Positions 55,240 through 61,500 of a stretch of 64,000 bases of DNA are shown here, one piece after another; position 1 is the stretch's first letter, and each line of letters starts with the position of its first letter. The stretch lies in contig MU004234.1 of NCBI GenBank assembly GCA_010405405.1, positions 168,993 through 232,992 on the forward strand, given 5' to 3'. Position numbers and translations under genes: made by a program. This DNA is from Microthyrium microscopicum (lineage: Eukaryota). The notes below the pieces were generated by a model, which saw nothing but the letters and a program-made list of their open reading frames with translations, ran no database searches and had not been told where the DNA came from.

Positions 55240-57292
55240 CTCCAGATCATTCATCTTCAAGGGCATCAAAAAAGGAGTCAACACTGTGCTGCGAACCAGG
55301 ACCGTATACAGTCACCCTCTTCCATCCATCTTCTTCAAGTGTTACTTGGCTTTCAGGGGCTCAGAATCCGAGAGGAGTTTACAAAATGATTTCATAATGA
55401 TTCTCTCATGAACAGATACCTAGGACTTCCACTTCTCCGGTAATCCGATCTGTATATTGGTCCTTCAATTACAAACTCGAGCCGTAAGACGTCAAGGTTG
55501 CAGTGTTTTGTATTATCTGAGCGATTTTGAAAAGTGCTTCCACAAGGGGCCTGTCCGGATTGTCCATTTCTTCAAAAGGGTCGTCTAAGTAGATGCGAAG
55601 GTCTCTGATCATATGTAGTCGATTTTTGTCCATTCGTTTGAGCCTCTCACATTTTTCCAGAAGTTCGACAGGAAATCCTTCCATTTGAAATCGATTTCGA
55701 GTGTAGAAGACTTCAAGAGCTTGTGCTCTTGAAGCCTTGTTGACTAAGAAGAGCGACGAGTTGCCTAGAGGACTACATGTGCAGCTGCTGGAATATAGAA
55801 TTGAGAATTTCTCGCAGAAGCAAAAAGTTCGATTGTCGTGAGATTTGACACGATTTGAGCCGGCGCAGTGTACGCGGCATACACCGTCATCTAAACCACC
55901 TTCGATGCAACCATCCGTACTGATTCTCGAGTCACATAGGAGATCAGCATGTGATAGGACCATCAGTTGGAGTTCTTCTGGCAGTTGCATGAATGGAAAG
56001 GGAACTCGCGCGCCGTCTTGAGGACGCACCAGCATCTTGTAGGCGCACATCTGAAGATCTTGGTATTCCTTTGATCGATACCAGGTTTCTAAATTTGGGC
56101 AATTAATCCTTCTTGGTTGAGATGTTTCATATCATCACCCAAGTATTTCTTTGCCCAAGCAAGGAAATCAGGGTCGTATTCAAGCAGCTTCTGACTAGTA
56201 CCTTTCTGTGCCTTCTCGCGTGCACAATACAAACGCATCTGCGTTATAGGAGCAGCACTGCGAGTAGAAAAGGGTGTAACCGATTCCCGCTGCTGAAAGC
56301 TGAACGGGTTATACGATTTTGCAAGAAGCCAAAGAATGAAGTTACATGCTGCGTCAAGTCGCAACGCATTTGCCTGGAATGCCGTTGGATGCTCAAAGTA
56401 CGAGGCAGAAGGATGAGGAGAATATAAGATGACGTGCTTTAAATTCTCACCATTAAACAAAAGATCGAAATCTAGCTCCAATCCTGTCGATGGACAGAAA
56501 GGAACAGAGAGACTGAGCAATCGTATGCCATGAAAAGGTTTCATAGTGATCCGCAGACTTTCTCGAGGACAAGTACCACCGATGAGAACAAAGGGAGCAG
56601 GGAGAACATTTAAAAGATAGCAAGAGAAGCCATCATTTAAGTCTTTTAGCGCTCCCGGCCAACTTGTTGCATGACACTTTCCACGACCAATGCACGACCT
56701 CTCTCCTCGCCAGTGCCAATCGTAACCAAAGAAGAAATCCGGGTGGAGCCCTTTCTTATTATTCAAAGCTTTTATCGTAAAAGAGGTTTCGTCCCAAAAA
56801 GGCGAGGGTTGATGGGTAGTACCTTGCGCGTCGCCTGTCTGACAGTGTAGAATGAGGACCAATTCCGCGTCCTCTCGTCCCGATGGGAGACAAATCCGCT
56901 CAATGAGGGTCTCCGGCCAAGCAAAGCACTCCTCGTTCTCATATGACTGACGAACTATGTCCTTCTCTGTTTGGTAGAACTGAGAAACCTTGTCTTGGAC
57001 GAAAGTACCGCCTCCGGTTTGCGGATCAGTGCCCTGTTTGAGGGTATGATGTTGTAGGAAAAACTTTAAGCAACCGTAGTCCCGTTTATTTAATGTGCTA
57101 GCCGCTGTGGTTGCAAAGCATGAAGCGATGTGCTCGCCTAGATAACTCTTACTGTGAGTGGCTGTTTTCGGAGATGTTTGACCGATGGATGTGTGTGCTT
57201 CCCGATAGCCTGTGAGGGCATCCAAAACACGATGTTAGAGTAGCCTTCCGGTGATCTGTCAGGGCATCCAAAAAACGAGAGGGAATCCTCAT
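55240..57292 (-). pseudogene. Frameshifted gene remnant: unknown N-terminal domain followed by an F-box-like/Cys-rich region
   Basis: ATG at 57292 is out of frame with the 56089-57225 ORF. That ORF is out of frame with the 55469-56050 ORF (FPFMQLPEELQLMVL, F-box-like). Protein-like sequence continues in other frames past 55469. Lower boundary approximate. Confidence 0.5.
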
Positions 57293-57490
57293 CGGAGGGG
57301 TGAGTAGTCTTTCAGTAGGGGAAATGCGGGGAAATAAAAATTGATGCCGTTACCTAGAACGGCTATAGTCATAGACGAAGGGACTAAGATTACTACGTAT
57401 CAATAGTATTTCGTAGGAGAAGCACGAGACTATCTAATTTAACAAAATAAGGTAATATTCCTGTTCTTTTTGGAAAGAAAAAAAAGGCCT

Positions 57491-57497
57491 AAAAAAA
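57491..57497 (-). terminator. RNA polymerase III terminator (T7 run) for the tRNA-Cys gene
   Basis: A7 on the + strand, 11 nt past the tRNA 3' end; a second A-run lies at 57478-57485. Confidence 0.75.
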
Positions 57498-57508
57498 GGA
57501 GAACAAGT

Positions 57509-57640
57509 AGGAACAAATGTGGATTGAACACATGACCTCAGGATATTCATCGCTGCAATCCCGCGCTCTGCTGTTGGTGCCAGTCAGCAATTGGACATCT
57601 AGCGTGACGACAAATGACTTACCCACTGAGCTACTGTTCC
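57509..57640 (-). tRNA. tRNA-Cys(GCA) with an 8-nt canonical intron (57545-57552) and a 52-nt spliceosomal-type intron in the D-loop (57571-57622)
   Basis: Joined sequence GGAACAG TA GCTC AGTGG|CA GAGC G CGGGA TTGCAG|A TCCTG AGGTC ATGTG TTCAATC CACAT TTGTTCC T. All four stems pair, length 72 nt, discriminator U. Confidence 0.88.
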
Positions 57641-58543
57641 GCAAGATGAATGCTCAATTCAAGCATTTCGTATTATAGCTACGACATACCATCGAAGCAA
57701 ACATGAAACAAACAGTTACTAGACAGTATAAACTAGGACCTAAACAAATAACAGGGTTGAGCATGAGCAGTCTAAAATACTGAAATTTTAATTATAAGTA
57801 GAGTTAATTGCGGCCGAGTAGAGGATAAGTACTACTATTATTTTATCTTTAATATCTACACTTCGAACTTTTCTTGCGCGCAACGCTCGAAATAACGCAA
57901 AACCTATTTAGTAAACCTTTCTACTTATAATCCTTAATAAGAGTATATATATATTGAAGGTTATATTTATATCGCCCTCTTCATATTGCTTAGGGATGAG
58001 ATCAGGCATGATTAGGAGAAGCTCGGGCTTTAATCAGTTGGATTGATCACACTGGCTCAGCCACAGCTCACATTGCTTACTCACTGCTCGCGTTACACTC
58101 CTGCGTAATTCACGTCTCGAAACAGAAATGGCATTTGTGTGGAGGCACTTTGTCCCCATATATCTATCGCTATTTTGTGAAGCAATATTCTCATGAGCTC
58201 ATCGAGCCTTTCATTTCAATATATGGTCATGGGTCCGACGCGACCGAAGACAGAAAACAAAGGGCCAGTTACTGTAAACAAATACTTTTAGCATCATTAG
58301 CCATCTTTGGGCTATCTACTGAATGCGGCTACTATGGTGGTCACTTAGGTAGGCTGGAGGAGTTGTTACAATATATTACATTTTCTTTTGTGTTTTCTGT
58401 GTATTAAGCATTCGAACTTTTCCAGGGCCTCAGAGATATAATGTACAGTCAAATGCCCTGGTTAACCACACCCATTGCCACCTTACTTTTCATGCGAATT
58501 TGCCTCAAATTCGTCTTCCTGTTATACATATCCCTCGCAGCCT

Positions 58544-61500
58544 TCATTCTTCGGAATCAGACGACTCGGACTCGGTTTCATCAGAATCGACTTCCTCCGA
58601 ATCAGTTTCTTCGCCCTCGTTGCTTATATCCTCTTCTCCAGGGCAAGCTTCGTTGTCATCGTACATGTATTCCTCGTATTCCTCAAATTCCATATCATAC
58701 AAATCATCAAACTCTTCGACAACCTGAGCAGGGCGGTGGGAGATGAATGCCTTCGGCCGGCAGTGCTCGATCTCTGCGAAGAATGGATGATTCTCCGTCA
58801 AGACCTTCCCATCGCATATGTATCCCATTGGAGTGTGCGTGAAGTCCTGGCACTTTCGTCGAGTCGCAAGCCACTCCTTGATGAACGTCAATGGTTTCGC
58901 AGTGAAAGTCTCAATGGCCTTTTGGAAAGTAACGGTTTTCGTCTCGGTGGTTTGCGGCGGTATTCCTAAATATTGGCAGATACTCGAATATTCATCGAAG
59001 GCAAAGTAGAGACGGCCGCTGAAAATCCCAAGTTCAACCTTAAGCCAGGTAGGGGCCGACCACTGAGCTGGTAAAGCCGGAATGCCGCAGAAAGACAAGT
59101 CGTTGAATGGAAGCATCTTCTTCGAAAATGGCGCAGCGTGAACGAGAAGATGCACATGTGGACAAGTCGATTTGCTTGTGACTCCCCGTACTAGTCTGTT
59201 TGCTTCTTCAGGAACCACGACGAGAGCTATATTGGTTTTGACGTTGATCAATATCCAGTTCACTGGTCGCTATAATACCAAATTAGTACCTGAGATCAAA
59301 GATTGTTGCGGGAACAGATCAATACGTAAGAAAATCAGATTTGTGGAAACCAGTGGGCTTGATATGAGGGAGAGATGTGTCAAAGACTTACCAGGAAATT
59401 GTCGTTTGGTTGTTCCAACTCAACTGTGCGGAGGTACTGCCAGGAGACAAAAAGTTTAGACTTTGCGAAGCCGAGATTAATGCCCATTGTCTGACCAAGT
59501 GCTGTGGAGCTAATGACCTTGAGAAACGGGATGATTGCTTCGGATCCTTCATTTAGTACGCCCGTGTTCACGAACATAGCAATGTCGCGGTGTAGGCCAG
59601 GATACTTCAGTGGGGCGTATCTTATTGGAATTTGCATTTGTCGTTCAATCTCCACCTCATATGTGACCTCTCTCTCTTGCTCAACTTCTTGTAAGACGGA
59701 TTCATGAATGGTTTGACCAAAGTCCTGGAAATCGTTCTGCAGGTCTATCAATTTAGCAGCAAAGGTCCCAATCTTGGACGTGGAAGGTTTGAGCTGCGCA
59801 GACTTATTGGCTTTTGGTCTAGGATCGTACAGACTATCAATTGTCTGGTGTTCCTGTTGGCGTAGGGCATCTAAATAGGCAGTTCGGTCGGCTACTTCTG
59901 TTAAAAAGGCTGGATGATCAAAAGATGTTTGAGCGCGATGACAAAAGTCAACACCTTGCGAATGCCACAATGGCTGAAGCTGCTCTAAACTATGACAGGT
60001 TTGCTGCAGGAGCCAGCAAACTACGTCATGGGAATCAAGAGAGGATGTGGGTTCCTTGCGTTGTTGGTCAAGAATGCTTTGATGGACATCTGGTGTCGCA
60101 AACCACACCACAGCTTGGGTTGTCGCGAGCTGTCGCATTCTCATTGCCGCTAAGACATGTCAGTTCAGGGCTGAGCTCCAAATTCAGTGCAGTGGACTTA
60201 CCTTGCACAGTATGATCTTTCGTCTGACCAAAGCCTAAAGTAATGGCAGCCCGGGCTTGGGCTGGCAGCTTCAAATCTGTGCCTCTAGTGTGAGCCTCGT
60301 CGATGTAGACTAAACAGCCGTCAAGATTATCGGCAAATGGACTGGCAGATAAAGTGGTCTGCTTGTGATTCCGGTAGAGAATCATTGGTTTGTTCTCATT
60401 GAAAAAGAGAGCCGCTTTGGCGTCCTTGTCGACCTGGAGCCAGGCCTTAGCCAGGTCAACATTGCTCATTTCGAGTATATGAGCGCCGGAATCCAGAAGG
60501 ATTCGAAGTCCTTTGCCTTGCAGCCAGTCCAGGAATTGCTTTTCTGATATCCGACGACCATCGCTGTCAGCTGCCACATGGTACTCGCGATTTCGTTTCT
60601 GCAAAAGATAAGTGAGAACCTCTGCGTTGGTATGCGCCAAAGTTTTCAAATCTTCTTGTCTGATTGTCAGAGGGAGTAGATTGCGACTATCGTTGGTACC
60701 ACTGAAACCTGTCGTTAGTAACCTATTGGACTGGTTGCCAGCGTCCTGGCCAGCAGAGATCAAAGGAATATCCCATCCTGACGCCTGCAACTTGACTTCG
60801 AACTGCTTAGCGTGGCGAGGAAAAACGAGATTGTTGAGGAAGTAATTAATAACAACAACGTTATGAGCCAGATGTTTTAAAAGATCGTTCAGCTGGAGGT
60901 CGTCGTCGGCATTGATCAGAGTGATGTCCGACAAGCATTCTGGAAGTGTGGCCGCATTTTGAATCCATTGATTATACTGCGCTGGCGGGTCATCGCATTT
61001 TCCCAGGTGGTGTAGGGCTTGCTGAAGATGATTGATTCCTAACCCACCTAGATAGAAAGACAGGCAGGTCAGGAGAATGGCAACGTCACAATGACCCCAC
61101 TCCGAATGATCACTGAGAAGAATTAGCATCAGAAGATGTAAAGATTGAGGCATCTTACCTTGGTACACCTTTGGCCAAAAATGGTACTGCAATCGGATCG
61201 CGTTGTGGGTGGAGACCATATTGTACGTTCCATCGTTTCTTCAAGGACATGAGAAGGATTTTGTGGGCAAGCAGTCCACGTAGGAGATAAAGGTTTTTTT
61301 TAGCTGGCAGATATTCCTGGAAAACCGACATTTCTTCAATCAACCGAAGCGCACTCGGATTGACCATCGGATTTGTCAAGAACTGGTCTATTGCAGCAAG
61401 TTCTTTTTCTGTGCAGTCTGCAATCGGCAAAGTGGAGGTTCCACCCGAGATAACACTCTTAACAATCCGAGACATCAGAGCTTCTTCGACATCGGCTCGC

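Follow-up and report, generated by a model that had tools for sequence, protein, structure and literature searches.

Can a nuclear transfer RNA (tRNA) gene carry an intron of the kind that the spliceosome removes from messenger RNA (mRNA)? tRNA introns are taught as three kinds, namely those spliced by proteins (an endonuclease and a ligase), group I introns and group II introns. The question is raised by a tRNA-Cys gene with a GCA anticodon on the minus strand of a 64,000-nucleotide (nt) stretch of the Microthyrium microscopicum genome (GCA_010405405.1, contig MU004234.1, positions 168,993 to 232,992; hereafter the window, whose own numbering is used throughout). The D-loop of this gene is interrupted by 52 nt that resemble a spliceosomal intron, and a canonical tRNA intron lies farther downstream in the same gene. 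The original prediction, made from the letters of the window alone, was that a single transcript may need both the spliceosome and the tRNA-splicing endonuclease in order to mature. Our analysis supports this interpretation, every computational test of it having come out in its favour. Furthermore, judged from their sequences, tRNA-Cys genes of other apparently fungal genomes form a recurrent class with one or two such putative introns. We believe that the interrupted class very probably consists of functional tRNA genes whose introns are removed by the spliceosome. We think it probable, albeit with less confidence, that the window copy is itself a working nuclear tRNA-Cys(GCA) gene, of a Dothideomycetes-like ascomycete, with a U2-type spliceosomal intron in its D-loop beside a normal 8-nt tRNA intron; this copy is rated lower since the metagenomes gave no orthologue of it and its genome may have other tRNA-Cys genes.

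The interrupted tRNA-Cys gene of the window

ARAGORN reports no tRNA in the native 64-kilobase window, nor does it when introns are allowed, and at a lowered threshold it miscalls the locus as tRNA-Ala(tgc) with a 52-nt intron. Once 57571-57622 is taken out, the program reports tRNA-Cys(gca), an intron of 8 nt following position 37, and once both inserts are taken out it calls a 72-nt tRNA-Cys. Removal of the 52 nt is necessary and sufficient for the tRNA-Cys call, which is the outcome that the proposed comparison with and without the insert had anticipated. As claimed, what is left is a complete tRNA-Cys with U73, in which 21/21 stem pairs form. Rfam at its gathering settings likewise has no match in the whole window; RF00005 (tRNA) scores 40.2 bits, against a gathering score of 29, when 57000-58700 is searched with laxer filters, in an alignment spanning insertions of 53 and 11 nt. 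With both programs silent on the window at standard settings, the suspicion that standard tRNA finders would miss this gene was well founded. The threshold of the same Rfam family was reached by only 3 of the 14 interrupted metagenome loci described below.

Direct reading of the minus strand showed the coordinates and letters first given for 57509-57640 to be right in every detail, and the A box, the B box and the T-run terminator to be intact, as had been stated (Table 1). The two boxes were assigned by comparison with the usual consensus sequences.

Table 1. Features of the tRNA-Cys(GCA) gene and its immediate surroundings (positions in the window)
Feature	Position	Strand	Remarks
Whole tRNA-Cys(GCA) gene	57509..57640	minus	72-nt tRNA in three exons, with 52-nt and 8-nt inserts
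Exon 1, tRNA positions 1-19	57640-57623 (18 nt)	minus	5' acceptor strand, 5' D-stem strand, D-loop through G18 G19
Full A-box-like sequence TAGCTCAGTGG	57633-57623	minus	within exon 1
Spliceosomal-type intron, 52 nt, between tRNA positions 19 and 20	57622-57571	minus	longest T run = 3
Intron 5' end GTAAGT	57622-57617	minus	read directly from the sequence
Intron branch site GCTGAC (CTGAC)	57588-57583, branch A at 57584	minus	A lies 13 nt before the intron end
Intron 3' end CAG	57573-57571	minus	first AG past the branch A
Exon 2, tRNA positions 20-37	57570-57553 (18 nt)	minus	D-loop end, 3' D-stem strand, 5' anticodon-stem strand, GCA anticodon loop
Canonical tRNA intron, 8 nt, after position 37	57552-57545	minus	ARAGORN i(37,8)
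Exon 3, tRNA positions 38-73	57544-57509 (36 nt)	minus	3' anticodon-stem strand, variable loop, T arm, 3' acceptor strand
B-box-like sequence GTTCAATCC	57529-57521	minus	in T arm, exon 3
Discriminator T (U73)	57509	minus	last base of exon 3
Pol III-type terminator	T7 run 57497-57491, then T8 run 57485-57478	minus	T7 begins 12 nt past the tRNA 3' end
TATAATA, possible upstream promoter element	57671..57677	minus	-37 to -31 from the tRNA 5' end

The insert was expected to match the mRNA introns of the window in size and signals, and it does fit them, although the set available for comparison is small (about 10 donors) and was inferred from the bridging of open reading frames (ORFs) in the DNA alone. 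These ORF-bridging introns are mostly 44-64 nt long, with two longer candidates of 104-122 nt; they begin with GTAAGT, GTGAGT or GTAGGT, carry a CTRAY branch motif and have mostly 6-14 nt between branch site and AG. A random segment of 50-65 nt would start with GT, hold YTRAY 10-13 nt before its end and end with AG at a chance frequency of 1.2e-4. When 1,660 intron-like segments of the window were removed one by one, only five overlapping variants, all at the tRNA-Cys locus, gave an ARAGORN tRNA across the joint. The insert in the tRNA-Cys gene is beyond chance.

The exact boundaries of the insert are a separate matter. A loose cloverleaf filter passes 21 different mature 5' halves for the window gene, and 20-37 per D-arm insert across the loci described below. 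Since cloverleaf rules alone leave so many 5' halves, we placed the boundaries by the GT-AG rule and by comparing the gene with its relatives; the GT-AG choice is the one that reproduces the D-arm of the uninterrupted relatives.

Other classes of intron were also considered for the window insert and rejected. A structured intron is not indicated, as the insert folds no better than its shuffles (z = 0.2). A self-splicing (group I or II) intron was set aside given that 52 nt is far too small, that there is no fold beyond chance and that no Rfam intron family matches. An intron of the bulge-helix-bulge (BHB) type has its splice sites in two bulges of 3 nt, with a helix of 4 base pairs between them and further helices on either side; with both equivalent boundaries tried, the window insert would have 0-2 of the 4 central pairs and no outer helices.

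Interrupted tRNA-Cys genes in metagenomes

The suggestion that other genomes be scanned for split tRNA halves proved fruitful, yielding 14 interrupted tRNA-Cys loci with the same signals in metagenomes. As anchors the scan used the anticodon arm, variable loop and T-loop of tRNA-Cys and nothing else, which made it blind to the 5' half. By design it could not see inserts 3' of the anticodon and covered tRNA-Cys only, so that the 5' bias of the inserts and their restriction to tRNA-Cys are ascertainment effects. It gave 88 loci with 92 matches, which ARAGORN with introns allowed sorted into 74 uninterrupted genes, 14 interrupted genes (two of them, L048 and L077, mismodelled by the program), three cut by contig ends and one miscalled (L015). 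Anticodon-loop introns of the uninterrupted relatives are absent or 9-23 nt long (0 or 10-21 nt in the 74 genes as sorted by ARAGORN) and lie in the same place as the 8-nt intron of the window gene.

The 14 interrupted loci hold 15 further inserts of 50-65 nt at six further positions. Whereas the window gene is interrupted at 19/20, inserts lie at 3/4 in L073, at 15/16 in L037, L055 and L068, at 18/19 in L001, L002, L052, L034, L048 and L077, at 22/23 in L017, L031 and L040, and at both 14/15 and 27/28 in L006, all positions being assigned by GT-AG boundaries. Without exception, the 16 inserts (the window's included) start with GT and finish with AG, and in each the A of YTRAY lies 10-13 nt before the end. 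The 5' site fits GT[AG]NG[TAG] in 12 of the 16, the exceptions being L001, L002 and L052 (GTGAAG or GTGAAA) and L034 (GTATGT), and the AG used is the first after the branch A in 11. No insert has a T run longer than 4. Removal of the inserts produced an ARAGORN tRNA-Cys in 15/15 constructs, again with that of the window among them. One-by-one removal of intron-like segments from the 88 loci recovered 13 of the 14 interrupted loci, L006 needing two removals; single spurious calls arose at L023, L045 and L062, in all of which the gene is already intact.

Two of these genes show how far such interruption can go. The tRNA-Cys gene at L006:389-586 (minus strand of the locus) is broken by a 50-nt insert at 14/15, a 53-nt insert at 27/28 and a 23-nt canonical anticodon-loop intron, leaving coding exons of 14, 12, 10 and 36 nt; this would make three introns of two kinds in one 72-nt tRNA. 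At L073:321-459, a 54-nt spliceosomal-type insert follows after only 3 nt of tRNA.

Pairs with an insert at the same site have kept identical or nearly identical exons over inserts and flanks that have diverged: L017 and L040 differ at 0/72 exon positions and 103/360 positions of flank and insert (p = 3.6e-10), L037 and L068 at 0/72 and 128/297 (p = 5.7e-16), the pairs among L034, L048 and L077 at 0/73 and 53-73 of about 355 (p = 2.4e-5 or less), and L001 and L002 at 1/73, a change from G-C to G-U, and 50/355 (p = 4.9e-4). Alignments of inserts at shared sites show no constancy beyond the GT end, the branch motif and the AG. The two subgroups interrupted at 18/19 both have inserts of 53 nt, with an identity of 14-21/53, which is the level of shuffles. 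Orthologues had been named beforehand as the place to look for conserved splice signals, and at shared insert sites signals and exons are indeed conserved, in contrast to the flanks and the remainder of the insert, which have diverged.

Changes within the exons point the same way. The two 18/19 subgroups differ by a compensatory change, A49:U65 in one and G49:C65 in the other, and between L037 and L055, which have their insert at 15/16, three pairs (7:66, 50:64 and 52:62) have changed on both sides with pairing preserved. Each of the nine distinct interrupted mature sequences forms 21/21 stem pairs, and the discriminator is T in 75/75 relatives examined. Among the 90 genes compared (45 distinct mature sequences), no uninterrupted twin was found for any of the nine interrupted types, and it seems unlikely that intact paralogues repeatedly converted these genes while leaving a 50-65-nt insert untouched in the middle. 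We conclude from these comparisons that purifying selection acts on the class of interrupted tRNA-Cys genes, and hence that the inserts must be removed from the RNA. The conservation data argue against regarding the interrupted class as pseudogenes.

A few further observations on the metagenome loci are recorded here. L064 and L085 have near-identical flanks and the same mature tRNA-Cys, one with an 11-nt anticodon-loop intron and the other without, so the canonical intron can be present or absent between close relatives; neither has a T run of 4 or more in the first 25 nt downstream. The commonest mature tRNA-Cys sequence occurs in 24 genes at 20 loci, each with an 11- or 12-nt intron, and all genes of the inverted tRNA-Cys pairs about 280 nt apart at L016, L063, L082 and L088 have this sequence. 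Upstream of the tRNA, the group of L034, L048 and L077 (about 70-190 nt) and that of L001, L002 and L052 (about 100-260 nt) each have a conserved G+C-rich block of their own; neither block matched an Rfam family at E <= 0.1.

Proposed transcription and splicing of the interrupted genes

Based on these observations, we propose the following course of events for the window gene. The gene would be transcribed, with RNA polymerase III (Pol III) as the most likely enzyme, a proposal founded on its intact A and B boxes, the TATA-like element near -30 and the T7 terminator; terminators, intact A- and B-box-like sequences and TATAATA together favour this polymerase. The spliceosome would then excise the 52 nt in the nucleus by way of GTAAGT, the branch A at 57584 and the first CAG downstream, rebuilding the D-arm. 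The tRNA body could fold only after that, whereupon its ends would be processed enzymatically and the 8-nt intron taken out by the endonuclease and ligase. In fungi, tRNA splicing takes place outside the nucleus. The eukaryotic tRNA-splicing endonuclease is positioned by contact with the tRNA body, its Sen54 subunit touching the D-arm (PMC4090602). Since the endonuclease needs this contact, the insert in the D-arm would have to go first.

The spliceosome is the best-supported agent of removal. A BHB motif was found in 0/16 inserts, whereas in the same test the anticodon-loop introns of these genes show 1-4 central pairs and the expected anticodon stem of 4-5 base pairs (bp), with a single gene falling short of 5 bp. 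The inserts are far too small for self-splicing introns and match no Rfam intron family, and the only features common to the inserts are the three spliceosomal signals at their proper spacing.

Three other explanations have to be weighed, together with the observations that count against our own. It is very improbable, in our view, that removal is not spliceosomal, being due to the tRNA-splicing endonuclease or another enzyme as with ectopic tRNA introns, or that the insert simply stays in the RNA. There is precedent for the location, given that ectopic introns in the D-arm, up to three per tRNA, are known in archaea, Cyanidioschyzon and nucleomorphs, and that a nucleomorph tRNA-Cys(GCA) has three introns of unknown mechanism (PMC4090602). 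An endonuclease, however, would have no need of a GT, a branch motif at a fixed distance and an AG, which are present in 16/16 inserts that lack a BHB motif, and the inserts measure 50-65 nt against the 3-24 nt given for nucleomorphs in the same source. Retention fares no better, as the inserts at 3/4, 22/23 and 27/28 break stems and the RNA could not work with them in place. A live rival, if a distinctly unlikely one, is that the spliceosome acts only on an RNA polymerase II (Pol II) transcript running across the locus, from which RNase P and RNase Z would afterwards release the tRNA, or in which the splice has nothing to do with tRNA production. Pol II transcripts are what the spliceosome normally works on, the window gene sits between two ORFs of its own strand, and the picture of simple Pol III transcription has its difficulties. 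The two inserts of the window gene stretch the spacing of A box to B box by 60 nt, and in genes interrupted at 14/15 or 15/16 the A box is not continuous in the DNA. T4 runs occur inside the insert at L017, L031 and L034, and 13/62 uninterrupted genes have T4 as their longest T run over the 40 nt downstream. At L073 the insert lies upstream of the A box, so that the A box alone can hardly set the start site; exon 1 has TATATATAA about 50 nt upstream, as would suit any start directed by TATA. Against a Pol II host stand the T-run terminators directly past the 3' end, the median distance from the discriminator base to a run of four or more T being 6 nt for 13 interrupted genes and 5 nt for 62 uninterrupted relatives; the interrupted genes have retained these terminators even where their flanks are otherwise randomised. 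In the window gene itself both boxes are intact and the upstream ORF on the same strand ends about 900 nt away, and U6 (see below) shows that Pol III transcripts can be spliced.

The remaining explanation concerns the window copy in particular. We hold it to be rather unlikely that this is a dead tRNA-Cys gene, its D-loop struck by a recent intron or introner-like insertion, its Pol III transcripts left unspliced and tRNA-Cys supplied by uninterrupted genes. A young insertion would leave all tRNA features intact, and a copy recently hit and now dead would be indistinguishable from the gene observed. The exact D-loop context combined with the pattern GTRNGT...YAG had 0 matches in the metagenomes, so that no orthologue of the window's own insert was found in that scan and the conservation described above holds for other lineages, not for this copy. 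The source genome may have other tRNA-Cys genes, and insertions in the D- or T-arm of eukaryotic tRNA genes are usually taken to indicate pseudogenes (PMC4090602). Five sequencing runs with the DNA of the window behave as DNA assemblies of one species, and no splice joints were found in the run guessed to be RNA (X5), whose contigs are identical to the DNA and end in adaptor. For the class as a whole, the 5' site is weak in the subgroup of L001, L002 and L052, an earlier AG lies 3-9 nt past the branch A in 5/16 inserts, and the loci are only apparently from fungal genomes, their taxonomy not being fixed by the flank ORFs (short and mostly overlapping the tRNA), of which 0/11 had a Pfam match. 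Given that at least three other lineages keep identical interrupted exons between diverged inserts and flanks, some with compensatory stem changes, that the data contain no uninterrupted twin of any interrupted type, and that the window gene is without defect in its stem pairs, U73, terminator and consensus splice signals, we do not favour a dead copy. A weaker point in the same direction comes from four sequencing runs, in which no second contig piece matched the insert (a check for introner-like elements) or 57509-57640 at 80% likeness; short matches, such as those of exons, may escape this comparison, and we do not count it as evidence for a single copy.

Related systems and the surroundings of the gene

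By its mode of working, the closest system to a spliceosomal intron in a tRNA gene is that of the mRNA-type introns of fungal U6; by the location of the inserts, it is that of the ectopic tRNA introns. The sole U6 gene of S. pombe is a Pol III gene whose intron is removed by the spliceosome, and the U6 genes of many yeasts contain as many as four introns each, unrelated to one another and, canonical signals apart, not conserved in sequence (PMC5855946). The tRNA-Cys inserts resemble these in being short introns with canonical sites and little else conserved in a small structured RNA gene of Pol III type, and in their many positions, some common to relatives and some specific to a lineage, with more than one per gene possible (PMC5855946). 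In contrast to U6, tRNA is not a part of the spliceosome, so that the argument from reverse splicing near its active site is not directly applicable, and the tRNA-Cys RNA needs a separate tRNA-splicing pathway as well. Reviewed hosts of spliceosomal introns are U6, U1, U2, U5 and ribosomal RNA (rRNA), and tRNA is not among them (PMC5855946).

The rRNA introns of lichens offer a second parallel. They are ectopic spliceosomal introns of about 57 nt in genes of ascomycetes that are not transcribed by Pol II, and the yeast spliceosome removes a 57-nt lichen intron from RNA polymerase I transcripts of rRNA (PMC8527467). Here the polymerase and the host RNA are different, and the tRNA-Cys inserts wholly block the folding of a 72-nt RNA. 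The ectopic tRNA introns of Archaea, Cyanidioschyzon merolae and the nucleomorphs of cryptophytes and chlorarachniophytes share with our inserts positions such as 3/4, 20/21 and 22/23, in D-arms, and can number two or three per tRNA, a tRNA-Cys(GCA) included; they are BHB-dependent or 3-24 nt long (PMC4090602), whereas the tRNA-Cys inserts lack a BHB, measure 50-65 nt and have GT, YTRAY and AG. The 8-nt insert of the window gene is of the canonical 37/38 kind, while the 52-nt insert at 19/20 has none of the features of that kind. The literature searched yielded no account of tRNA genes with spliceosomal or mRNA-type introns, although subscription journals and unsearched articles may contain one, and likewise none of fungal genomes said to lack tRNA-Cys.

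In its widest form, which in our judgement might equally well prove right or wrong, the proposal is that fungi have a fourth kind of tRNA intron: spliceosomal introns that interrupt nuclear tRNA-Cys genes, and perhaps genes for other tRNAs, at the acceptor stem, D-arm or anticodon stem, with up to two beside a canonical intron in one 72-nt tRNA. In some lineages the interrupted gene would be the sole tRNA-Cys gene, so that an essential tRNA could be made only once the spliceosome, and after it the endonuclease, had worked on a Pol III transcript. If this were true, a single small RNA would go through the two splicing systems of eukaryotes, with one always ahead of the other, and Pol III transcripts besides U6 would be spliceosome substrates. 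The supply of tRNA-Cys would be tied to spliceosome capacity, with genes hidden from every standard tRNA finder, and fungal annotations would systematically miss tRNA genes. Moreover, the gain of spliceosomal introns by reverse splicing into abundant RNAs would acquire a compact and testable case with many independent insertion sites.

The window around the gene is gene-dense, with about 47% G+C, and phosphoketolase, COX15 and 2EXR are among its fungal genes; the best named relatives of its Ran-binding protein are in Dothideomycetes, with 50-59% identity. Of the two same-strand ORFs that flank the tRNA gene, one ends at 58544 and the other starts at or below 57234. The latter, just downstream of the tRNA (56089-57234, minus, 381 codons), has its first ATG only at 56544 and is without a Pfam match. 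Neither ARAGORN nor Rfam recognises a tRNA in the 77-nt stretch at 58055-58131, of which all four runs show another copy, with 12 differences, at a different place in the genome. Farther away, at 30483-34199 (minus), a 1,238-amino-acid ORF has an SNTX-type MACPF/CDC-like domain, DUF7656 and a P-loop GTPase region, an architecture of pore-former plus NTPase that is reminiscent of fungal NLR-like proteins.

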